A stretch of DNA of 62,675 nucleotides from a virus. The first letter of the stretch is position 1. Every line of letters begins with the position of its first letter. Where the stretch lies: the IMG/VR virus record IMGVR_UViG_3300022748_000002; one strand, 5' to 3'. Position numbers and translations under genes: made by a program. This document shows positions 5,058 to 62,675 of the stretch, in pieces. The notes below the pieces were generated by a model that saw nothing but the letters and a program-made list of their open reading frames with translations, had not been told where the DNA came from and searched no databases.

Positions 5058-7883
5058 ATGGCAACTGACCAACAAGGCATCATGGCGTTGCCAAAAAATG
5101 GCCAAAAACAAGACACTCCTCAACTAGGTCTTGACGACTCTTACGATGCAATTCGCAAGGGTTTGGCAGAGGCCAGCCCACAGGATTCGATGCAAGTTCA
5201 GCAGCAGCTGAACCAAATGTTGCCCGCTTTGGACCAACTCACCGATGAGCAGCTCGACAGCTTGATCAACATTGTGCAGTACATGCACGATCACGAAGAT
5301 CAGTACAAAGAGCTGGTCGCCGAACTGGTCAAAAAAGGCGTTGTGGATGAGGGCACATTCCCTGAAGAGTACAACCCCGAAGTGATCGCCACGTTGGGTA
5401 TGGTGTTCTTGGAAGCCAAGCGTCAGCGTCAAGCATCTGCCCCACAAGGTCCCGTGCCTCCCATGGGCTTGGCCAAGGGCGGTATCGCTGAAGCAGCACG
5501 CATGGTGGCAGGCCATGGCCGCAACGGCGACACCATGCTGGCGCACATCAACAAACAAGAAGCAGCTTTGCTCAAGGCCCACGGCGGATCGGGCACCATC
5601 AACCCAAAGACTGGGTTGCCAGAGTACTGGGGCGGATTCATTGGTAATGCCATCAGCAGTGCTGTTGGTGCTGTAACTGGCGCAGTCAAATCCGTGGTCA
5701 ACGGTGTGGTGAACACCGTCAAATCCGTGGTGGGTTCTCCTATTGGCAAGGTGCTGGCCACTGCCGCGCTGGCCGCGTTCATCGGTCCCGCAGCCTTTGG
5801 CTTGTCCGGCGCTATGGGCGTGGGTGCACAGCTTGGTTTGGCTTCCATGGGTGCTTCCGTCTTGGGCGGTGGCAACCTGAAAGACGCTTTGCAAGCAGGC
5901 GCAAAAGGTTTCTTCCTTGGCGCTGCAGGCGCAGCGGCCGCCCCTACTTTGGGTGCAGCAACTGGTGTGACAAGCGCAGCAGGGCAGACTGCTTTGGGCG
6001 CAGGCGCAGCCGGCACAGGTTTGGGCTTGCTGACAGGCAAGGGCTTGCAAGGAGCTGTCAAGGAGGGCTTGACAGCTGCGACCGTGGCCGGATTGGCCAC
6101 CGGCGGCAGCAACATGGTTCAGGGCAAGGACTTCTTGACCCCTGCGTCTCCTCTGCCTGCTTCGGAAGTCCCTAAGACTCCCGACCAGATCAAAGCCGAT
6201 ATGGCACAGCAAGGCAACTTGTCTGTGGCCAACCAGCAAACACCTCCTCCCGGCACTGTCGGTGCTGGTCAAAGTGCAGACCCATTAGGCGACTTCATCA
6301 AGCAGAACGAAGCTTTCCGCACGGCCGCAAATACCCCTGCGGGGCCTGCTGCACCTGCTCCAACAAGCTGGACAGACAAGATTTCCGAGTTCTACGATAA
6401 GAACATCTCTCCCTCTGGCCGCGCGCAAGCAGGGTCGGATGAGGCTGTGCAGAAGATGATGGACAAATACGGCCTGACTCAACAACAGGTGCTGAATGCC
6501 CCTGAAAGTTCGGTGTTGGGCAAGCAGCTTGCTGCGGCCACGCCCGGCGTGTTGAGCAACTACGGTCCAGCGATTGCCGCGGGCCTCGGCGCAACAGCCT
6601 TGATGGGTGGTTTCAAGACTCCTGAGCAGCCACAAATGAGCCCACAAATGGCCAGCACCATGTCTGGCCAAGCCACGCGCGACCTGATGGCCGCTAATCC
6701 AAAGGATTATTTGGTGCAGAACCTCCCCGGCGTGCAGTACGACGACAAGGGCAACATCATTGGTTCCACTCCTTGGACACCACGCAAAGCAGCACAAACG
6801 GAAGTGGGCTCGAGCAGCTACATCCCATTCACGCTGCCCACCTACAACGCGCCTACGGGCAGTGTCGGTAGCCGACAAGTACAACAGCCATACAACACGG
6901 CTGACATGTACACCAACCTCATGCCTCCTCGTTATGCAGCGGACGGCGGCTTCATGCAGTCACAGCCTACCTTCCCCGGCACGCCATTGACCATGGACAG
7001 CGGACCTTTGATGGCCCAACAAGCGCACCCCTTGGCGATGAATACGCCCGGTGTGCCTATGAACATGCCCATGGGCTTGGCCAAAGGCGGTATTGCTGAC
7101 ATGGCTCACGCTTTGGCGGCACAGGGCCGCAACGGCGACACAATCTTGGCACACATCAACCCAGAAGAAGCCGCTATGCTCAAAGCACACGGCGGCTCTG
7201 GCACGATCAATCCACACACGGGACTGCCCGAGTACTGGGGTTTGGGAAACATTGCAGCATTGGTTCGCGACATGGTCGCCAATAATCCAGACCTAAAAAA
7301 TGCAGCATTGGCAAAGGAGGCGGGAAAAGGAGCCGCGATGCCTGCAGCCGCACCCGGAGTGCCTGTTGCTTCTGATCCAACGACTGCCACTGCACAGCAA
7401 AAGGCAGATTACGACGCAGCCATGAATGGCTACCAAGCGCAAATGCGCACATACAACGCACAAAATGCAGCGAATCAGCGCTTGAAGGACTACCACGCAC
7501 GCGTTGCAGCCCAACAGGCAGCGCCCGCTGCGGTGGACCCCTCGATTGCCATGGGGCAACAGGTTGGTGGCACTCTCAATCCAAGCTTAAGCAATGCCGA
7601 TTTCGCTGCTCGTTTGGCAGCAGGTGCACGTCGTCGTCCAGCAGGTGCAATGGCTGTCGGAGGTATTGCTTCTTTGGCCCCGGGCGGTTATCCTCGACGC
7701 ACAGGTCAAATCAGCGGTCCGGGGACCGAGACCTCAGACGACATCCCTGCAATGCTCTCCGACGGTGAATTCGTAATGACCGCCAAGGCCGTAAAAGGCA
7801 TGGGTGGTGGAAGCCGCCGAGCAGGCGCAAAGAAAATGTACGCTCTCATGCATCGTCTTGAGAAAAACGCAGCACGGGGATAA
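5058..7883 (+). CDS. Internal virion (ejection-type) protein, 941 aa, with an internal 56-aa duplication
   Basis: SD AGGAG. Gly/Ala-rich hydrophobic central region. Duplicated module MGLAKGGIA..GRNGDT.LAHIN..EAA.LKAHGGSGTINP.TGLPEYWG at nt 5463-5630 and 7071-7238. C-terminus SGPGTETSDDIPAMLSDGEFVMTAKAV. Confidence 0.55.
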   Translation: MATDQQGIMALPKNGQKQDTPQLGLDDSYDAIRKGLAEASPQDSMQVQQQLNQMLPALDQLTDEQLDSLINIVQYMHDHEDQYKELVAELVKKGVVDEGTFPEEYNPEVIATLGMVFLEAKRQRQASAPQGPVPPMGLAKGGIAEAARMVAGHGRNGDTMLAHINKQEAALLKAHGGSGTINPKTGLPEYWGGFIGNAISSAVGAVTGAVKSVVNGVVNTVKSVVGSPIGKVLATAALAAFIGPAAFGLSGAMGVGAQLGLASMGASVLGGGNLKDALQAGAKGFFLGAAGAAAAPTLGAATGVTSAAGQTALGAGAAGTGLGLLTGKGLQGAVKEGLTAATVAGLATGGSNMVQGKDFLTPASPLPASEVPKTPDQIKADMAQQGNLSVANQQTPPPGTVGAGQSADPLGDFIKQNEAFRTAANTPAGPAAPAPTSWTDKISEFYDKNISPSGRAQAGSDEAVQKMMDKYGLTQQQVLNAPESSVLGKQLAAATPGVLSNYGPAIAAGLGATALMGGFKTPEQPQMSPQMASTMSGQATRDLMAANPKDYLVQNLPGVQYDDKGNIIGSTPWTPRKAAQTEVGSSSYIPFTLPTYNAPTGSVGSRQVQQPYNTADMYTNLMPPRYAADGGFMQSQPTFPGTPLTMDSGPLMAQQAHPLAMNTPGVPMNMPMGLAKGGIADMAHALAAQGRNGDTILAHINPEEAAMLKAHGGSGTINPHTGLPEYWGLGNIAALVRDMVANNPDLKNAALAKEAGKGAAMPAAAPGVPVASDPTTATAQQKADYDAAMNGYQAQMRTYNAQNAANQRLKDYHARVAAQQAAPAAVDPSIAMGQQVGGTLNPSLSNADFAARLAAGARRRPAGAMAVGGIASLAPGGYPRRTGQISGPGTETSDDIPAMLSDGEFVMTAKAVKGMGGGSRRAGAKKMYALMHRLEKNAARG

Positions 7884-19726: not shown

Positions 19727-19745
19727 TTTAGAAAGGATAGTGTAA
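19717..19745 (-). promoter_or_regulatory. Candidate face-to-face promoter for the SNF2 operon
   Basis: On the minus strand: TTACAC, 17 nt, TACGAT. It overlaps the plus-strand promoter. Confidence 0.35.
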
Positions 19746-39417: not shown

Positions 39418-39633
39418 ATGTACAAAGTAGATCGCGGGATTGAATATCCCGACAGCCGCACCCGATACCCATTCAATGACATGGAAGTGGGGGACAGCAT
39501 CCTGTTCACCGAGCGCGCGCCCGCAGACAGCGCCCGCGTGGCCGCTTTGCGGTTCGCCCGCATCCAGACACCACCATGGCGGTTTTCCCTGCGCACGGTG
39601 TCGAATGGTTTCCGCCTGTGGAGAACCTTGTAA
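39418..39633 (+). CDS. Hypothetical protein (71 aa), paralog 2
   Basis: Track ORF 39358..39633 trimmed to ATG 39418. RTRYPFNDMEVGDSILFT...ADSARVAALRF...GFRLWRT parallels the 39142 ORF. Confidence 0.55.
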   Translation: MYKVDRGIEYPDSRTRYPFNDMEVGDSILFTERAPADSARVAALRFARIQTPPWRFSLRTVSNGFRLWRTL

Positions 39634-40307
39634 TGGGAAAAAAGGACGTTTACAACGTACCGCCTGCACTGCGCGACAAAGCAGCGTCCCGCATGGCCAC
39701 CGAAGTGGCCCCGCTGCGAAAACAGCCCCGCACGGTCAACGCCAAGGAATGGAAGTTCATCACCGAGCTGGTAAGCGGGGACGGGCGCGTCACCATGAAA
39801 GAGGCGGCCATCAGGGCAGGGTACAAACCCAGCTCCGCCTCCGTCATGGCGTGGAAGCTGACAAACCCAGAATTGAACCCGCACGTGGTGGCCGCGATTC
39901 AGGCATACCGCGCAGAGTTGAATTCGAAGTACAACACCAGCTACGAGCGCCACATGCGCGACCTGCAGATCATCCGCGACAAAGCTTTGGAAAATGGTGC
40001 GTACGCGGCAGCCGTGCAGGCAGAGTATCGACGCGGCCAAGCCTTGGGCAGCATTTACGTGGACCGCAAGGAAATTCGCACGGGCACAATCGACAGCATG
40101 AGCAAGGAAGAGGTCCAGAAAAAGCTCGACGAATTGAAAAAGCTCTACGGCGGACCACCACCCAGCGCCTTGATTGACGCCAGCACAGGACAAATAATTG
40201 ACAGTCTCGAACGCGAAAAAGACCCGGCTTTTGACGCTGGAGTGGCAGAGCCTCCGCCCGATATATTTGAACGGGACAATGATTTGGGGCCCGACGATGA
40301 AACCTGA
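39633..40307 (+). CDS. terS: Terminase small subunit-like protein (224 aa)
   Basis: Trimmed to ATG 39633 (TAATG coupling). AKEWKFITELVSGDGRVTMKEAAIRAGYKPSSASVMAWKLTNPELNPHVVAAIQ matches the N-terminal HTH pattern of Terminase_2-type small terminases, as I recall it. Confidence 0.7.
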   Translation: MGKKDVYNVPPALRDKAASRMATEVAPLRKQPRTVNAKEWKFITELVSGDGRVTMKEAAIRAGYKPSSASVMAWKLTNPELNPHVVAAIQAYRAELNSKYNTSYERHMRDLQIIRDKALENGAYAAAVQAEYRRGQALGSIYVDRKEIRTGTIDSMSKEEVQKKLDELKKLYGGPPPSALIDASTGQIIDSLEREKDPAFDAGVAEPPPDIFERDNDLGPDDET

Positions 40308-41844: not shown

Positions 41845-41923
41845 AAAATCAATTGGCCCGGTATTATTTCCGTGATAATATTCACCACGTCGCGATTTTG
41901 CGACGCCTAGAAAGGATAGAGAC
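41841..41923 (+). promoter_or_regulatory. Cassette copy C: promoter, hairpin, leader
   Basis: TTGGCC (41853-58), 17 nt, TGA-TAATAT (41876-81). Hairpin CGTCGC-GATTTT-GCGACG (41888-905). TAGAAAGGATAGAGAC-ATG. Confidence 0.6.
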
Positions 41924-43991: not shown

Positions 43992-44015
43992 AGCCCGCAC
44001 AATGCGGGCTTTTTT
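43992..44015 (+). terminator. Intrinsic terminator ending the 39.1-44.0 kb unit
   Basis: AGCCCGCA-CAA-TGCGGGCT followed by a T-run. Confidence 0.75.
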
Positions 44016-44036
44016 GCGTCCGCGGTTAACCTGCGG

Positions 44037-44057
44037 TAATTGGGGACAGATCAACCG
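44037..44057 (+). repeat. 21-bp direct repeat, copy 1 (TAATTGGGGACAGATCAACCG)
   Basis: Identical to 44082-44102. Confidence 0.9.
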
Positions 44058-44081
44058 CACGGCCACGGGGGAAACGCTGAA

Positions 44082-44102
44082 TAATTGGGGACAGATCAAC
44101 CG
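44082..44102 (+). repeat. 21-bp direct repeat, copy 2
   Basis: Identical to 44037-44057. 45-bp period. Confidence 0.9.
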
Positions 44103-44163
44103 GTAAACTGCAGCCCGTAAACTAGGCCCACGGGCCCCGCACGGTCGACGCCTGAAACGTGGG

Positions 44164-44392
44164 CCACGGGCCCCGACCCGCCGGCCACGGCCCCCGGTCC
44201 GCCCAGCTGGACCCCTGCGCAGCGGCCCACGGGGCACCGGCCACGGCCACCGCACCCAGTACCCCGCACCGCTGGCCACGCCACCCCAGCCACGGCCCAC
44301 GATCCCCGACGCATGCACCACGCACCGCGCGCCCAGCCACCACGCCCACGCCCAGCGGTCCACGGGGCATGGGCCCAGCGGCCGCACCACGC
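44164..44392 (+). repeat. Degenerate heptanucleotide array (CCACG[GCA]N and CCNNNNN units), C-rich on the + strand
   Basis: CCACG[GCA] starts at 44164, 44185, 44227, 44241, 44276, 44290, 44297, 44318, 44346 and 44360, all congruent modulo 7. Most of the other in-register heptads begin with CC. Confidence 0.8.
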
Positions 44393-44584
44393 ACCGCGGA
44401 CCCCGACGCCCGAAGGGGGGAGGGCCATAAACGGCCCCGGTCCGCGCGGGCCAGCCTCCGCCCATGTTTCTGACATAGGATTTGTCCATAAATACTTATC
44501 AGTAAAATAGCGAACCCACCCCCTTGTTTAGAAAAAGGCTAGGGTGGGGTAATATATAAAAATTCCAGAACCTGAGGGTCTGCC

Positions 44585-46051
44585 ATGGCATACGCACCTG
44601 CTGACATTGAAGAAGAACGACTGCGCCTCGAGCTACGGCTCAAGCTCCTTGAAACGCACGAGCGCGCAACAACCAAATTCATCGACTTTTGCCAATACGT
44701 TTGGCCTGAAATGCTGGTCGGTGAGCACCATCGGATCATCGCGGACAAGTTCGACCGCGTCATCAGCGGCGACTGCAAACGCCTGATCATTGCCATGCCG
44801 CCCCGGCACGGTAAATCCCAGCTCGGGAGCTACTTGTTCCCCGCCTACTTGATGGGCCGCCTGCCTCAATCCAAGCTGATCGTCGGTTCGCACACCGCGG
44901 AGCTCGCTCAACGCTTCGGCCGGATGATCCGAAACCTCGTGGACGACGAAAAGTACAAAGAGCTCTTTCCAAACATGCTCCTGTCTGCCGACTCCAAGGC
45001 CGCCGGACGGTGGAACACGGCCCAAGGCGGGGAAGCCTTCTTCATCGGTAAGGGCGGCGCGATGACCGGGCGCGGCGGCGACATCATCATTTTGGACGAC
45101 ATCTTGGACGAACAGGATGCCAACTCTGAAACCGCGATGGAAAGCACGTGGGACTGGTACGAATCCGGCCCTCGTCAGCGTTTGCAACCGGGCGGCGCAA
45201 TCATCCTGATCAACACCCGCTGGAAAACAGACGATCCTGCCGGCCGCTTGATCAAGATGCAGAAAAACCTCAAGGCGGACCAGTGGGAGGTCTTGGAATT
45301 TCCTGCGATCCTGCCCTCTGGCAAGCCCCTTTGGCCGGGGTACTGGAAGATCGACGAATTGGAGAAGGTCAAGTTCTCCATCGGCCTGCCAAAATGGAAC
45401 GCCCAGTGGCAACAACAGCCGACCAACGCTGAGGGCGCGATCCTGAAGCGCGAATGGTGGCGCAAGTGGCAGTATTCGGAGCCACCATCCTGCGAGTACA
45501 TCCTGCAGTGCATGGACACGGCCTACTCCAAGAAGGAAACGGCTGACTTTTCCGTGATCAGCACTTGGGGCGTGTTCTATCCTGACGCGGATTCGGGTCC
45601 GAACCTCATCTTGTTGAACGTGCGCAAAGGTCGCTGGGATTTCCCAGAGCTCAAACGCGTCGCACGGGACGAGTACCAGTATTGGAAACCCGACAACGTC
45701 TTGATCGAGGCCAAAGCTACTGGCACGCCGCTGCAGCAAGAACTCCGAAAACTCGGAATCCCTGTCACCATGTACTCGCCCGGCGGGCGGCGCACGGGGC
45801 AAGACAAGATCAGCCGCGCCAACTCTGTTGCACCAATTCTGGAGTCCGGCATGGTCTGGTATCCGGAGGATCAGGAGTGGGCCGATGAGATGGTGGAGGA
45901 GTGCGCGGCGTTTCCCAACGGATCGAACGATGACCAAGTGGACACCGCGGTCATGGCTTGGAACCGGTTCCGCCAAGGCGGGTTTATCTCGCTCAAGGAT
46001 GACGAGTGGGACGAGCCAGAGGTCACGAACGCCCCTGTTGAGTATTACTGA
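44585..46051 (+). CDS. terL: Terminase large subunit (488 aa)
   Basis: Walker A IIAMPPRHGKSQ, Walker B GGDIIILDD, and a C-terminal RNaseH-like nuclease region (CMDTAYSKKETADFSV...NDDQVD). Confidence 0.85.
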   Translation: MAYAPADIEEERLRLELRLKLLETHERATTKFIDFCQYVWPEMLVGEHHRIIADKFDRVISGDCKRLIIAMPPRHGKSQLGSYLFPAYLMGRLPQSKLIVGSHTAELAQRFGRMIRNLVDDEKYKELFPNMLLSADSKAAGRWNTAQGGEAFFIGKGGAMTGRGGDIIILDDILDEQDANSETAMESTWDWYESGPRQRLQPGGAIILINTRWKTDDPAGRLIKMQKNLKADQWEVLEFPAILPSGKPLWPGYWKIDELEKVKFSIGLPKWNAQWQQQPTNAEGAILKREWWRKWQYSEPPSCEYILQCMDTAYSKKETADFSVISTWGVFYPDADSGPNLILLNVRKGRWDFPELKRVARDEYQYWKPDNVLIEAKATGTPLQQELRKLGIPVTMYSPGGRRTGQDKISRANSVAPILESGMVWYPEDQEWADEMVEECAAFPNGSNDDQVDTAVMAWNRFRQGGFISLKDDEWDEPEVTNAPVEYY

Positions 46052-46096: not shown

Positions 46097-48820
46097 ATGG
46101 CCAACGAACAACTCAACCAGCTACTTGACGATGCGATTGCGCGTCACGATGAAACTCTTGCTCAGTTCGGGGGCCCCGCTCCTGTGCACTTGGCTTCTGG
46201 TGGTATCCCCTTTGTTCCGCGTGCGGTGATGTCGGGCACGGCGCGCGATGAGTTGCAGGCCATCAAGGATCAGTGGGATGCGTACACTCCGCAGGCTCAA
46301 GCCTACAACGATGCTTTGAACAAGTGGAAGACTGAGACCTACGAGCCCTACATCGCTGCGGTGGACAAGTACAACGCTGATGCGGCGACCTATAACGCCG
46401 GTCCGCGGACCACGGCTTTTGCTGCAACAGCCCCCACGGCCATCCAAGATTTCAGCATGGCTGCCCCCAAGGCTCCTGAAATCACGCAAGAGCAGTACCA
46501 AGCCAAAGCCGATGCTGCCAACGCTGCACTCAAGGGCCGCCAGATGGGCATCGATGCGTTCACCGATCCTGATCGGTTCAATCTGAGCATCAACTCCCAT
46601 TTTGCTGATGGCGGGGAAGTAGGCGAGGTCAAGGAACCGTGGCTCCCGCAGGTCTCCACCTATTCCGAACTCACCGCGCAGGACATGTATCCCGGCCAGC
46701 AAGGTCAGTACGACCAGCGCGACGCGGCCCGTCACATGTTGGCGGCCGGCACTTTGGCCCGCAAGTACGGCCCAACAGCCGCGGAGATGATGGGCAAGGC
46801 GCATGAGATCACCACCTCTCCCTTCCGCTACATTGGCTCAAAGCTCGGCATCAGCCAAATGCCTGTTGATTACGAGCAGGATTTGCACAACAACCAGATC
46901 GGTATTGAACTGGCCCGCCGGTCCAAGAGCCAAAAAGATTTGGAAGACTTGGTCCAGCAGATGGCCGAGCAGCACCGCACCAGCCAAACGCAAGGCCAAG
47001 CTTGGACAGGCAAGCCTGTGCGCAAGCGCGCGGACGGCAGCCCCGAGTACGGCGAGATTCCCACTGGCGGAATCACCGAAGACACACGCACAACTCTTGC
47101 ACAGCCAATCACGGCCCGCGGAGCTTTGCAAGCGCTGAAGGATGTGGGCACAGATGTTGGTCGCGGCGCGCTCAGTAATGCGGAGTCCTTGGCCCGCGGA
47201 GCTTTGTCCGTGGTCCCCGGATCAATCGGCGATTTGGAAGCGCTGGCACGCAAGGGCATCAACTGGTCGTTTGGTCCCGGTGGCGTCAAGGTCAGCGAGA
47301 AGACCTACGCGCCCACCAGCGAAGAGATTCGCGCCTCTGTTCCACGTGAAACACCACTGCGTCCAGAGAGTGCGGGCATGGAGTCTTTGGGCGAGATTAT
47401 GTCGCCCGGGTTTGCCAAAGCAACCAAAGGAATGCCTGTTGGCATGGCCGTGCGCCCCGTGGGTGGCGGCACATCATTCACCGGCACTGTGTACGGCGAC
47501 AAGATGATGTCCAAGATGGATGAGATGGTCTACAATGGTCAGACTTCCGGCCTGTCGGAAGTTGGACCGGAACTCAAGGACGCGATCACCAAATTCTGGG
47601 AAGGCAAGGCCAAGAACTACTTGACCCGCCAGATGGGCACCGCGGACGATCCGATCTTCAACGCAATTTTGCGCAAGGACATCAAAGGTTCCCGCGTGGA
47701 AGAGCACTTCCCAGAAGACCGCCTCGATGCGGCCCTGATGGGCAAGACCCGCGTCAATCCAGAAACAGGCGAAGAACGCTTCTTTCCCAAGTATCCAAAC
47801 GTCATTCCCGCCCTGACCAAGGCTTACGACGAGCTGACCGGCATCAAGGGCGTGTCTTTTGACAAGGGCGCGGCCGACGCACGGTGGACAAATATCTTGT
47901 CTGATGAAGCACGGGTCAAGGAACGCTTGATGAATGAGCAGATGATCGACAAGATCATGGGTCAGACCAACTTGCCGCCTAACCGCATCAATCCCAGTGT
48001 GCACATCACAGGGCCAAAGGCTGACGACGTTGAAAGTTTGGTCAATTCTCCCGGTGATCGGTTCAAGCAACTGCACCAGTCGTACCTGCACCAGCAAAGA
48101 ACACCCAACGAAGAGGTCGTTCCGCAGCATTTACGGCAGGCGATTGAGTCAGGCGAGCCTATTTACGACATTGCACCGCGCGGAATTCTGTCCGACGTCC
48201 TGTCTCCGGACAACATCAACAAGTATTTGAAGACCTTGGACCCCAAGCAGATCGAAAAAATGCGCTTTGATGACGTGGTCAAGAACTCGGCCAAGTACAA
48301 CATGAAGCTTTTTGCTCGTGCAGACTTGGAGCGCGACATCCGAAACGGAAAACGAGTGCCAAATTCAGTGTTTGAAGAGGGTGTGAGCAAGCCAATCATG
48401 CAGTTTGGCGAAGATTCCAGCCACCCCGGCTTTGCTTGGAAGCGGATTGAGAAGGATGAGTCCACTGTTCCGGAAGGCGCGTACCTCGGCCACTCTGTTG
48501 GTGGCTACGCACCCGGCGGAATGTACGGCCCAGAGAAGAACAAGCTGTTCAACGAGGGCAAATATCAGGTGTACACTTTGCGCGACAACAACAACCGCCC
48601 AGTGAACACCATTGAGGTGCGCATGGATTCGGAGAACGCCCCTGTTGTGACACAAATCAAGGGCAATGGACGCGCAACCGGCAACACTGCCCCGACCGAC
48701 TATGATCAGCTGGTCAAAGAGTTCTTGATCAAACAAATCAAACCCGTCAGAATCACGGAATTCGATAAATTTCTCACGCCTTCTCTCATTAATTTGAAGA
48801 ACAGCTTGCCCGGACAGTAA
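46097..48820 (+). CDS. Large protein of unknown function between terL and portal (907 aa), C-terminal PcfJ-like region
   Basis: The C-terminal EGAYLGHSVGGY...YQVYTLRDNNNRPVNTIEV...VTQIKGNGRA resembles PcfJ-like domains, from recollection. Mid-N region RDAARHMLAAGTLARKYG...AHE...DLHNNQIGIELA. Also contains LASGGIPF and FADGGEV motifs. Confidence 0.6.
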   Translation: MANEQLNQLLDDAIARHDETLAQFGGPAPVHLASGGIPFVPRAVMSGTARDELQAIKDQWDAYTPQAQAYNDALNKWKTETYEPYIAAVDKYNADAATYNAGPRTTAFAATAPTAIQDFSMAAPKAPEITQEQYQAKADAANAALKGRQMGIDAFTDPDRFNLSINSHFADGGEVGEVKEPWLPQVSTYSELTAQDMYPGQQGQYDQRDAARHMLAAGTLARKYGPTAAEMMGKAHEITTSPFRYIGSKLGISQMPVDYEQDLHNNQIGIELARRSKSQKDLEDLVQQMAEQHRTSQTQGQAWTGKPVRKRADGSPEYGEIPTGGITEDTRTTLAQPITARGALQALKDVGTDVGRGALSNAESLARGALSVVPGSIGDLEALARKGINWSFGPGGVKVSEKTYAPTSEEIRASVPRETPLRPESAGMESLGEIMSPGFAKATKGMPVGMAVRPVGGGTSFTGTVYGDKMMSKMDEMVYNGQTSGLSEVGPELKDAITKFWEGKAKNYLTRQMGTADDPIFNAILRKDIKGSRVEEHFPEDRLDAALMGKTRVNPETGEERFFPKYPNVIPALTKAYDELTGIKGVSFDKGAADARWTNILSDEARVKERLMNEQMIDKIMGQTNLPPNRINPSVHITGPKADDVESLVNSPGDRFKQLHQSYLHQQRTPNEEVVPQHLRQAIESGEPIYDIAPRGILSDVLSPDNINKYLKTLDPKQIEKMRFDDVVKNSAKYNMKLFARADLERDIRNGKRVPNSVFEEGVSKPIMQFGEDSSHPGFAWKRIEKDESTVPEGAYLGHSVGGYAPGGMYGPEKNKLFNEGKYQVYTLRDNNNRPVNTIEVRMDSENAPVVTQIKGNGRATGNTAPTDYDQLVKEFLIKQIKPVRITEFDKFLTPSLINLKNSLPGQ

Positions 48821-60763: not shown

Positions 60764-62675
60764 ATGACGACAGCTTACACCTCCCTCTTAGGTCTGGCCC
60801 TCCCGGTCACAGGCGAACTCCAAGGTACTTGGGGCGACACAGTCAACAACAGCATCACTTCGCTGTTGGATTCAGCTGTTGCAGGCACCACGACCATCAG
60901 CACAGATGGGGATGTAACGCTCTCAACGACCACTGGCGCGGCCAATCAAGCACGTGAAGCAATTCTGCTGTTCTCTGGTGCACGCACCGCGCAGCGCACA
61001 ATCACAGCTCCTGCACAGTCCAAGATTTACACTGTCATCAACGCCACCACTGGCGGCTATGCGGTCAAGTTGGTCGGCGCAGGCCCAACTACAGGTTTGA
61101 CCATTCCCAACGGCGCAACAGCTGTCGTGGCATGGAACGGCTCTGACTTCATCGAAATCGGCTCTGGCACGATTGGCAACCTGACTGTCAATGGTAACTT
61201 GACTGTTACAGGCACATCGACCTTGACAGGCGGCGCAACCATCCAAGGTTTGACAGTCGGCAAGGGCGCCGGTGCTGTGGCTACCAACACTGCTGTTGGT
61301 GCTAGTGCTTTGGCGACAAACTCAACAGGAGCTCAAAACACCGCAATTGGTATCAATGCTCTGAAGTTGGCTACTGATTCACTGAACACGGCTGTTGGTA
61401 CAAACTCATTGCAGACGCAATCAACTGGCTACCGCAATACTGCCGTTGGCGCTCAGTCATTTCCCGTGCTGACCACTGGAATCGACAACGTAGCTGTTGG
61501 TACATACGCAGGAAATGGAACAACAACAGGCTCATCTAACACTGCGCTTGGTTCTAACGCTCTCTACTCCAACACCACAGCCTCTAACAACACTGCTGTT
61601 GGGTATCAGGCTGGGTACACAAATACCACTGGTGATCTGCTTACAGCTATTGGTCGTTTTGCTTTGTATAGCAACACCACTGGTACACGAAACATAGCTG
61701 TTGGCGACAACTCTTTGGGGCTAAACACCACAGGAAACTACAACACAGCGCAAGGCTATCAAGCCCTTTACTCCAACACCACAGCCAATGAAGGTACTGC
61801 TGTCGGCTACCAAGCATCGTATTCAAACACCACAGGTGTTAACTCGTCGTTCGGCAGTTCCGCGCTAAAGAACACCACCACTGGCACATCGAATACGGCC
61901 ATTGGTAAGAACTCAGTTCAGTTGAACACCACAGGCAACTACAACACTGCGCTTGGAGAATATGCCCTTTACTCCAACACCACATACTCTGCAAACGTAG
62001 CTGTCGGTTACAGCGCTGGATACACAGCCAACGGAGCGACTGTCACAGCAGTTGGCCACCAAGCCGCTTATTCCGCAAGCACAACAGGCCACGTAACCGC
62101 CTTCGGTTATCAGGCGGGCTACGGGTACACCAGCGTCTCTGAAAACTCGTCCAGTACATACATCGGATTCCGCTCTGGCTACAGCGGAACTATTACCGGC
62201 CGCGACAACACTTCTGTTGGCGGCGCAAGCTCGTACTCAATGTCAAGCGGTTCGCTCAATGCGGCACTGGGCGCCTATGCGTTGTTCGCAAACACTACTG
62301 GTAATAGCAATGCAGTTGTTGGTTACTCTGCCCTTACTTCAAACACAACAGGCTCAGGAAACTCTGCATTCGGATATGTCGCTGGGCAGGCTGGAACTGT
62401 CGCCAACAACGTGTCTTACTTCGGATATGCCGCAGGCCAGTACCAGACAGGAAATTACAACACAGCGGTTGGCTCGAACGCGATGCAAGGGACCGCAGCT
62501 TCGACAGGAACCAGCAATACTGCTGTTGGCATGTCAGCTCTTGCATCTAACACCACAGCCTCTAACAACACTGCTGTGGGGTATCAAAGTCTTTATACAA
62601 ACACTACTGGCACATACAATGCCGCTGTGGGGTATCAATCCCTTTTTGCCAACACAATAGCAAACTACAACACTG
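60764..62675 (+). CDS. Tail fibre, N-terminal part (ORF open at the window end, continues at base 1 of the circular genome)
   Basis: SD AAGGA. No in-frame stop to the window end. The N-terminus MTTAYTSLLGLALPVTGELQGTWGDTVNNSITSLLDSAVAG is typical of podovirus fibre/adaptor N-termini, from recollection. Repeats of N-T-A-x-G-x-x-A follow. Confidence 0.8.
   Translation, partial: MTTAYTSLLGLALPVTGELQGTWGDTVNNSITSLLDSAVAGTTTISTDGDVTLSTTTGAANQAREAILLFSGARTAQRTITAPAQSKIYTVINATTGGYAVKLVGAGPTTGLTIPNGATAVVAWNGSDFIEIGSGTIGNLTVNGNLTVTGTSTLTGGATIQGLTVGKGAGAVATNTAVGASALATNSTGAQNTAIGINALKLATDSLNTAVGTNSLQTQSTGYRNTAVGAQSFPVLTTGIDNVAVGTYAGNGTTTGSSNTALGSNALYSNTTASNNTAVGYQAGYTNTTGDLLTAIGRFALYSNTTGTRNIAVGDNSLGLNTTGNYNTAQGYQALYSNTTANEGTAVGYQASYSNTTGVNSSFGSSALKNTTTGTSNTAIGKNSVQLNTTGNYNTALGEYALYSNTTYSANVAVGYSAGYTANGATVTAVGHQAAYSASTTGHVTAFGYQAGYGYTSVSENSSSTYIGFRSGYSGTITGRDNTSVGGASSYSMSSGSLNAALGAYALFANTTGNSNAVVGYSALTSNTTGSGNSAFGYVAGQAGTVANNVSYFGYAAGQYQTGNYNTAVGSNAMQGTAASTGTSNTAVGMSALASNTTASNNTAVGYQSLYTNTTGTYNAAVGYQSLFANTIANYNT
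62549..62675. repeat. 127-bp exact duplicate of bases 1-127 (circular-assembly overlap)
   Basis: Base-for-base identity read directly. The fibre reading frame is continuous across the join. Confidence 0.9.

Follow-up and report, generated by a model that had tools for sequence, protein, structure and literature searches.

What occupies the largest gene-free gap of a phage genome, directly upstream of its large terminase gene (terL), and what, if anything, does it do there? The question is raised by virus record IMGVR_UViG_3300022748_000002, a stretch of 62,675 nucleotides referred to below as the window. A preliminary description, made from the letters alone, had found no credible gene in the block at 44018-44584, had pointed to CCACG motifs spaced in a 7-bp register and to a perfect 21-bp direct repeat, and had proposed a packaging (pac) or terminase-binding array or a boundary of the physical genome ends. 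We find that the block is a single-copy non-coding array of ~40 degenerate heptads, CCNCGNN, located in a variable slot before a control module. Both borders of the gap, an intrinsic terminator on the left and the terL start on the right, lie where they had been placed. The array and its borders are as follows:

43992-44015, plus strand: intrinsic terminator closing the upstream accessory-gene cluster (8-bp stem with 6 GC pairs, then TTTTTT)
44128-44414, plus strand: heptad array, ~40 degenerate CCNCGNN units, C-rich on the terL strand
44164-44380, plus strand: core of the array, 31 consecutive heptads in a single register (starts congruent 1 modulo 7)
44128-44141 and 44387-44414, plus strand: flanks of the array, with the register off by one base
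44158-44168: CGTGG/CCACG inverted pair
44585-46051, plus strand: terL, with ATG at 44585 (Terminase_6N/6C domains; phrog_38, E=6e-109)

Between 44018 and 44584, CCACG occurs 14 times, exclusively on the plus strand: eight CCACGG and five CCACGC, as had been counted before, plus one CCACGA. This is a density of 24.7 per kb versus 1.7 per kb genome-wide (~15-fold), and 1000 dinucleotide shuffles of the region contained 2.2 copies on average and 7 at most. Ten of the CCACG starts had been described as congruent modulo 7; all ten are indeed congruent 1 modulo 7 (binomial bound, P<=1.4e-5), and 14 of the 19 copies of the looser core CC[AC]CG are in the same phase. A Fourier check for period 7, suggested in the preliminary description, gave a power of 9.5 over 44121-44412 (1000 shuffles: mean 0.59, maximum 3.73), with a period-3 power of 1.0 over the same interval. 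When the genome was scanned by 300-nt windows, the array region had the highest period-7 power of all (8.6, against a 99th percentile of 2.6).

Cutting 44122-44430 into 44 heptads gives the consensus C C [A/C] C G N N. A C stands at position 1 in 73% and at position 2 in 77% of the units, in line with the earlier remark that most in-phase heptads start with CC; G occupies position 5 in 73%, and no base dominates at positions 6 and 7 (36-41%). The composition is 80% G+C (C148 G85 A46 T13 in 292 nt). The first two 21-mers, reported as 16/21 identical and found to be so by direct reading, are called by Tandem Repeats Finder (TRF) as a 21-nt tandem repeat of 2.0 copies with 85% matches. Because the heptad units are degenerate, TRF picks up the array only piecewise (21-nt x2, 56-nt x2). 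There is one array per genome, and in exact-pattern scans of viral contigs for further copies nearly all matches were chance singletons.

To see how the block varies, we compared ~160 terL-anchored loci from viral and metagenome collections and 76 terS-anchored loci (designated here by L and a number). The nearest database relatives of the window's TerL are those of the uncultured freshwater phage DSL-LC04 (63% identity), of 023Pt_psg01 and of the Pelagibacter phages HTVC027P and HTVC023P; the clade under study is a freshwater one that belongs with HTVC023P-type phages. In marine viromes, no phage group is reported to be more abundant than this one (bioRxiv 10.1101/2019.12.14.876532). In nearly all relatives terL is preceded by a conserved module that begins with the following box:

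44415-44428, plus strand: conserved box GGGGGGAGGGCCAT, adjoining the array

The stretch from the terminator of the upstream gene to this box, which reads GGGGGAGGGCCAT in relatives, forms a variable slot that may hold an array or other content. In the window, the terminator hairpin at 43992-44015 makes the left border of the gap, and the same hairpin is found in L005 and L285.

Homologous CCACG-type, C-rich heptad arrays are present in three independent assemblies: the window, L005 (1331-1690; TerL 97% identical) and L285 (10131-10440; same phage as L007, TerL 94%). The array abuts the conserved box in the window, in L005 and in L082; in L285 ~65 nt of unrelated sequence lie between them. The L005 and L285 arrays differ from that of the window mainly by indels of whole heptads (7, 14, 21 nt); the gaps between the window and L005 arrays measure 14, 7 and 21 nt, plus 1 and 29 nt. 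Identity of the array among close relatives is ~70%, compared with ~97% in the flanks. More distant phages carry other arrays in the same slot. L082 (TerL 79%) has a different period-7 array with a power of 12.4, built of CCAGGGT, CCGATGG and GGGCCGC units, and in DSL-LC04 (63%) and L254 (75%) arrays of CGTGG and CCCTGG units are found on the opposite strand relative to terL. These arrays share 8-mers beyond what composition predicts: 30 between the window type and DSL-LC04 in inverted orientation (9.9+-4.3 expected), 28 between DSL-LC04 and L254 in direct orientation (5.6 expected) and 23 between L254 and L082 in inverted orientation (5.3 expected). The sharing also shows which way each array is turned, and the arrays thus form one element family that has been flipped at least twice.

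In most relatives the slot is filled instead by a 27-nt G-box, GGTGGTGGCGGGGGTGGGTGGGCCCGC, ~60 nt upstream of the GGGGGAGGGCCAT box and conserved nearly base for base across phages with TerL identities of 79-99%:

L006 3768-3794, L008 3770-3796, L255 ~2370-2396 and ~45 other loci: G-box GGTGGTGGCGGGGGTGGGTGGGCCCGC

It is absent from the window, even with 3 mismatches allowed. L255 (TerL 99% identical over the compared part), L205 and L006 (both 94%) have the G-box and no array, and because they do so with nearly the same TerL, the array must be dispensable. Judged from this comparison, the array is to all appearances optional and not the phage's essential packaging signal. Heptads have evidently been added and dropped as whole units, divergence is much faster than in the flanks, and in near-identical phages the array and the G-box are interchangeable; the simplest explanation of unit turnover is recombination, either slipped-strand or unequal. 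The genes upstream are not the same either in phages with near-identical TerL, even beside a 99% identical terL, which places the slot at a mosaic junction. Some slots hold unrelated hairpins. In the marine 023Pt_psg01 (L002 ~5685-5760) we observed two copies of the reverse-complement G-box core, GGGCCCACCCACCCC, and in L281 (2080-2300) and L261 (~2180-2400), with TerL identities of 72-73%, the slot contains C-rich simple repeats of 90% G+C: (CCCG)n, CTCCCGG x4 and CCGCCCG xn.

Two apparent associations of the array did not hold. An upstream gene of 143 aa is not tied to it, as homologues occur in G-box phages and at other positions; and a CCCTGG/CCAGGG site common with marine pelagiphages was dropped, since in HTVC023P and HTVC027P it belongs to the stems of the upstream terminator hairpin.

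The indels and flips bear on whether the block is transcribed to any purpose, be it as a protein gene, as non-coding RNA or as a Rho-loading (rut) tract, rich in C, that backs the upstream terminator; we regard such a transcribed element as hardly credible. Open reading frames (ORFs) of 184, 126 and 90 aa on the minus strand and of 104 aa on the plus strand do run across the block, but ORFs of this length are artefacts of its poverty in T (13 T in 292 nt), and their products have no Pfam or PHROG matches. The 7- and 14-nt indels between relatives break the frame, so that no reading frame survives; together with the weakness of period 3 (1.0 versus 9.5 at period 7) this led us to reject a protein-coding block, and the earlier verdict that it holds no credible gene stands. 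That an RNA read from the plus strand would be C-rich and poorly structured speaks for a transcribed role; against it, the tract with its 29% G is not G-poor. The block has no Rfam family match at gathering score and no tRNA or tmRNA, and the single-strand fold of the array is weaker than that of its shuffles (z=+1.4); a known RNA or structured strand was rejected on these grounds. Finally, a common role as sense-strand RNA is ruled out by DSL-LC04 and L254, where the array is inverted and the terL strand carries its G-rich side. The absence of an Rfam match also agrees with the earlier statement that the block is not recognizable as any described element, as does the literature that we found on the phage group: it contains circular assemblies only, is silent on genome ends, packaging sites and the region upstream of terL, and gives no description of a packaging signal, an origin or late-gene control for HTVC023P-like phages.

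Compared with the slot, the sequence between it and terL is deeply conserved. The remaining features of the gap are:

44037-44057 and 44082-44102, plus strand: perfect 21-bp direct repeat TAATTGGGGACAGATCAACCG, 45 bp spacing (0 expected by chance)
44101-44133, plus strand: array leader CGGTAAACTGCAGCCCGTAAACTAGGCCCACGG with two copies of CSGTAAACT
44453-44462 and 44490-44502, plus strand, within 44453-44502: conserved islands AGCCTCCGCC and AAATACTTATCAG
44515-44555, plus strand: putative late/terL promoter, consisting of the C-run CCCACCCCCTTG, TTTAGA at 44527-44532, a 17-nt spacer and TAATAT at 44550-44555
44572-46051, plus strand: Shine-Dalgarno region (GAGGG) and terL

The order of box, islands, C-run with sigma70-like promoter, Shine-Dalgarno sequence and terL is kept in nearly all relatives; the array lies between the terminator and the box, and the promoter follows the box. 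No other non-coding motif of the family is as conserved as GGGGGGAGGGCCAT, which most of the terL-anchored loci contain and whose distance from terL hardly varies (157-191 nt upstream of its start in most of them). It is a better candidate for an essential cis-site than the array. We had considered that it closes a hairpin or terminator with CCT(C/T)CGCCC; this was dropped, as RNAalifold on 21 relatives found no consensus structure and the single-sequence fold has z=0.33. Both islands are common to L005, L006 and L255, and L008 has only the second, AAATACTTATCAG; the spacers between the islands differ. A consensus promoter scan returned no site at the putative terL promoter, which with 8/12 consensus matches is below threshold; it is proposed because the pattern CCCCCTTGTT ... 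TA(T/A)AT(A/T) is kept across relatives.

On the far side of the array conservation is patchier. The 21-mer TAATTGGGGACAGATCAACCG is present in exactly two copies, as the preliminary description had it, with no others in the window even when 3 mismatches are allowed. That description had also proposed comparing the region in related phages, and the outcome is divided: arrays are found in L005, L285 and others, but the 21-mer is absent from both L005 and L285, where the corresponding stretch is unrelated. The leader CGGTAAACTGCAGCCCGTAAACTAGGCCCACGG is identical in the window and L005 and has one difference in L285. CSGTAAACT is not enriched elsewhere in the window; both it and the 21-mer are local, and we rejected them as genome-wide signals.

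The A+T-rich 120 nt (44460-44584) that follow the array call to mind a replication origin, an iteron array beside an unwinding region, and the phage has a family A DNA polymerase, UvrD- and SNF2-type helicases and an AEP-type primase of its own (Pfam scan of 48 non-structural ORFs, with negatives below resting on the 25 families listed out of 27). No origin is described for the HTVC023P-like group in the literature found. The preliminary description had ranked an origin below packaging, and we too consider it highly improbable here. The A+T-rich stretch is fully explained by the conserved promoter module; no skew extreme lies near 44 kb (detrended GC extremes are at 10.1 and 21.8 kb, AT extremes at 27.3 and 39.1 kb); the replication genes are 17-23 kb distant; no initiator gene adjoins the array, its neighbours being accessory genes and terL; and the array is dispensable in close relatives.

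Packaging deserves closer attention. Of the earlier proposal, the part that has held is that this is non-coding cis-DNA, and equivalent arrays stand before terL in relatives; the pac reading itself has been weakened. The array might form part of a pac region bound by terminase, or flank the physical genome ends as T7 short-repeat arrays do. Each genome has a single copy, which occupies the largest non-coding gap immediately before terL. The large terminase is a Terminase_6-type protein, with that of Aaphi23, a phage that packages by the headful mechanism from a pac site, among its more distant relatives; the pac site of P1 contains clusters of hexamers. Sets of short direct repeats are likewise known from the pac site of SPP1 (PMC4737164). 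To examine whether packaging specificity follows the array, we used the small terminase candidate:

39633-40307, plus strand: small terminase candidate TerS (phrog_51, E=6e-10)

Compared from their real start, the first ~200 residues of TerS, i.e. the whole N-terminal part where the DNA-binding domain is expected, are 99-100% identical between array-bearing phages (the window and L285) and the G-box-bearing L008. As this part of the protein is the same with or without an array, the array is not its specificity site, and a TerS target in the region, if there is one, must be common to both kinds of genome and hence lie in the conserved module. On these protein comparisons, then, small-terminase specificity is not determined by the array. 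The array is missing altogether from phages whose TerL is 94-99% identical (L255, L205, L006), and its orientation relative to terL flips in DSL-LC04 and L254, a poor fit to a directional signal. Small terminases of the SPP1/SF6 type form a helix-turn-helix (HTH) ring with roughly one-turn spacing and prefer bendable A/T-tract DNA (PMC4737164); a 7-bp period is off the helical repeat, and the DNA of the array is G+C-rich and has no such bendability. We therefore consider a packaging element unlikely.

Contig starts are ~3.5-fold enriched in the last 120 nt before terL, a point in favour of a terminus, but contig ends scatter over the module from both sides without a common site, and the assembly is circular, so that its ends do not define those of the virion DNA. 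Contig ends were rejected as evidence of a physical terminus, as the scatter fits better with de Bruijn-graph branching at a block common to co-occurring strains. Many independent contigs (L004, L007, L022, L038, L060, L078, L211 and L234) begin 18-115 nt before terL; in three, the first base is no more than 2 nt away from where a CCCCCTTG run ends; breaks just before terL are most likely due to assembly-graph branching at the conserved promoter. In L051 (~1760-2290) and L075, ~500 nt are inserted between the promoter module and terL, and the L051 insert, read from its letters, is an extra gene resembling an HNH-type endonuclease.

The strand asymmetry of the array raises the question of non-B DNA, in which bottom-strand G-quadruplexes or top-strand i-motifs would stall polymerases or give a structural signal. 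G-quadruplexes on the bottom strand had been suggested before, and indeed the strongest |G4Hunter| windows of the genome are in the array (-1.76 and -1.64). The alternative cassette GGTGGTGGCGGGGGTGGGTGGGCCCGC has GGGGGTGGGTGGG tracts with single-T loops, and the array of L082 ends in GGGCCGC x3 plus G6AG3. The suggestion nonetheless goes only so far: no canonical (G3+N1-7)x3 G3+ motif occurs on either strand of the whole window, mean G4Hunter over the array is only -0.72, the 29% G on the C-rich strand favours the duplex, and the spacing of G tracts does not call for a 7-bp CC..G lattice. We judge a non-B function to be very unlikely.

Two readings carry more weight. The one we favour, tentatively and with clearly less than even confidence, is that the array is a dispensable, fast-evolving, orientation-independent element acting at the DNA level, possibly a lattice for protein loading. 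It would offer one low-specificity protein site per 7 bp, on the model of pSM19035 parS, whose contiguous heptads are read by omega, a ribbon-helix-helix (RHH) protein. Loading of the lattice would give rise to a nucleoprotein stretch beside the control module for the late operon and packaging, on DNA that is insulated from transcription, and the loaded protein, abutting the conserved box, might modulate late transcription or the initiation of packaging and would not specify them. Position-specific conservation, and register and periodicity far beyond chance, count for this heptad lattice; so do the non-coding, unstructured character of the block, its single copy between terminator and box, the homologous arrays of three assemblies, the 8-mers shared with distant relatives, the still stronger period 7 of L082 and the parS precedent.

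Several observations weigh against it. No RHH, HTH or ParB partner was found among the 25 Pfam families listed, from which a divergent small protein could escape. The conserved core, ~3 of 7 positions, carries little specificity, and ~40 units far exceed known heptad operators. In DSL-LC04 and L254 there are local heptad runs only, with no global register. Indels in multiples of 7 are expected from slippage alone and thus are no proof that register is selected. Phages whose TerL is 94-99% identical may or may not have the array, both array and G-box are missing from many relatives, and a neutral satellite would show the same presence/absence variation.

This last point leads to the alternative that the array is a functionless heptanucleotide satellite, which we regard as only slightly less probable. 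It would have arisen by slippage and unequal crossing-over in the only sizeable non-coding gap, at the recombination-prone junction of accessory genes and late operon, its CC..G pattern inherited from a founding unit and homogenised by turnover. Presence/absence among near-identical phages, a slot that may equally hold a G-box or unrelated hairpins, fast divergence (~70% versus ~97% in flanks) by whole-heptad indels, and different upstream genes beside 99% identical terL at a mosaic junction all agree with it, as does the lack of a binding protein among the Pfam families listed. So does L281 (TerL 72%), where plain, perfect tandem repeats (CTCCCGG x4, CCGCCCG, (CCCG)n) stand in the same place. 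Unit-length indels between alleles together with unit periodicity are what defines a tandem-repeat satellite, and both were found. Less readily explained by neutrality is that arrays sharing k-mers persist at a single locus down to 63% TerL identity in compact genomes, that the same 7-bp period returns with different core motifs, that conservation is strongly unequal among heptad positions, and that the register is held over >30 units despite ~30% divergence.

A side observation on base composition concerns the core motif. In the window (1-62548), CCWGG is absent (0 versus ~141 expected, both strands pooled), and several palindromes are strongly avoided: GGCGCC (4 versus 51 expected), CGATCG (0 versus 23), AACGTT (0 versus 23), AGATCT (0 versus 14.5) and AGGCCT (2 versus 21). 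This deficit looks like restriction-site avoidance. Relatives are of two kinds, with 0 CCWGG or with 4-10 CCWGG per kb. Heptads containing CCWGG (CCAGGGT, CCCTGGT) are limited to the CCWGG-rich lineages L082, L254 and DSL-LC04; CCWGG-free lineages have CCACG-type arrays, (CCCG)n-type arrays or the G-box. Since the array motifs track this split, the core motif seems free to change under restriction avoidance with the 7-bp period kept. A core that can change argues against a highly sequence-specific reader and fits a protein reading shape or period, or no reader at all.

Carrying the protein-loading reading further, arrays and the 27-nt G-box could be alternative forms of one orientation-independent cis-element of freshwater HTVC023P-type relatives, which would nucleate a protein filament of 7-bp footprint beside GGGGGAGGGCCAT. 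The filament would govern when, or how efficiently, late transcription or packaging begins; this would be tuned by the fast-evolving length of the array, and restriction by the host would remould the core motif. We put this forward as a conjecture that, taken as a whole, is unlikely to be right.

Further features of the genome and its setting may be noted. The first and last 127 bases of the window are identical, so that the record represents a circular metagenomic assembly of ~62.5 kb; the overlap falls within a gene with a 51-bp tandem repeat (25-122). Among the 25 Pfam families listed there is no integrase and no partition protein or RHH. Two repeated elements other than the array, a 13-nt leader and a palindrome, were noticed as well. 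The features concerned are:

1-127 and 62549-62675: 127-bp terminal overlap, an exact match indicating a circular assembly
40769, 41134, 41909, 42461 and 43369, plus strand, and 38575, minus strand: 13-nt leader AGAAAGGATAGAG, with near-matches at 19730 and 31642

AGAAAGGATAGAG occurs 8 times in the window (0.01 expected). The copies at 41909, 42461 and 43369 each stop 3 nt short of a gene start (41924, 42476 and 43384), and in relatives the leader comes after a hairpin-TATAAT-hairpin unit. From its placement, it looks like a conserved promoter and ribosome-binding-site cassette of the small accessory genes upstream of the array. The palindrome GTTCCACGTGRAAC is found at 47339-47352 in the window, at 3962-3975 in L018, 3964-3977 in L082, 2877-2890 in L254 and in ~50 other loci; in relatives it stands between the promoter and terL, and also ~1.9 kb downstream. 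Upstream of terL, L253 and L254 carry repeats of the half-site CGTGGAAC. The core of the palindrome, CCACG, is the same as that of the array. GTTCCACGTGRAAC may be an operator.

As to the host, terL relatives of 88% and 83% identity are contained in L496 (JAURGS010000038.1, a metagenome-assembled genome (MAG) of Rhodoferax sp.) and L497 (a Crocinitomicaceae MAG), respectively. Because the two bins disagree taxonomically, the hint that they give (Comamonadaceae?) is weak.

The region upstream of terL is thus resolved into a deeply conserved control module and, next to it, a hypervariable slot in which a heptad array, a G-box or neither may be found. A functional array would add a second example, unrelated to the first, of protein binding on a strict 7-bp lattice; a neutral one would show cleanly that a satellite can persist even where a phage genome is compact, and would also be a known cause of assembly breaks just upstream of terL.

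How does the element compare with known systems? The parS site of pSM19035 has 7-10 contiguous 7-bp repeats, each bound by one omega dimer in either orientation, and requires an unbroken lattice (PMC9499535). Both it and the array consist of contiguous, gapless, non-palindromic 7-bp units that may lie in either orientation. They differ in consensus (WATCACW there, CCNCGNN here) and in extent: the 7-10 units of pSM19035 overlap promoters, and the ~40 units described here end at 44414, ~110 nt before the putative -35 element at 44527-44532. Nor does this lytic-type genome have an RHH or ParA/ParB protein among the Pfam families listed.

The short-repeat regions of T7, SRL and SRR, resemble the array in that short motifs are arrayed on one strand of non-coding DNA in regions of genome maturation and vary between relatives. 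Dunn and Studier are said to have described, in 1983, a 7-nt motif (CCTAAAG-like) at ~13 bp spacing in A+T-rich DNA, just to the inner side of a defined terminal repeat. In the array, by contrast, 7 bp is the period, and the DNA is 80% G+C; the phage has a Terminase_6-type TerL, and its circular assembly shows no terminal repeat. A T7-type RNA polymerase is absent from the Pfam families listed for the window and is not annotated in the 50 kb of DSL-LC04 that were examined.

A non-coding repeat cluster near the terminase genes, one per genome, also describes the pac site of P1, which lies at or in terS and has a few boxes with helical-turn spacing and bendable A/T tracts. The same likeness and the same design hold for the pac sites of SPP1 and SF6 (PMC4737164). 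The array differs from all of these in lying beside terL, ~3.7 kb downstream of the end of terS, in its 7-bp period, in being dispensable, and in that the N-terminal part of TerS does not co-vary with it.

The DR2 and DR4 repeats in the 'a' sequence of herpes simplex virus are strand-asymmetric, G+C-rich, copy-variable short tandem repeats beside conserved packaging and cleavage motifs, and are not themselves essential. Their units are of 12 and 37 bp and have canonical G-quadruplex clusters; those of the array are of 7 bp, and there is no canonical quadruplex motif. The herpes repeats lie next to pac1 and pac2; any link of our conserved box to cleavage would be hypothetical. Degenerate micro- and minisatellites of bacteria and phages, in turn, share with the array gain and loss of whole units, fast divergence and presence/absence polymorphism; the array stands apart from them by its single locus across deep lineages, the same period with different motifs, and position-specific conservation. 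In kind, the element resembles short-iteron arrays and satellites, and it is distinct from them by its strict 7-bp lattice, its alternation with the G-box and its orientation flips.

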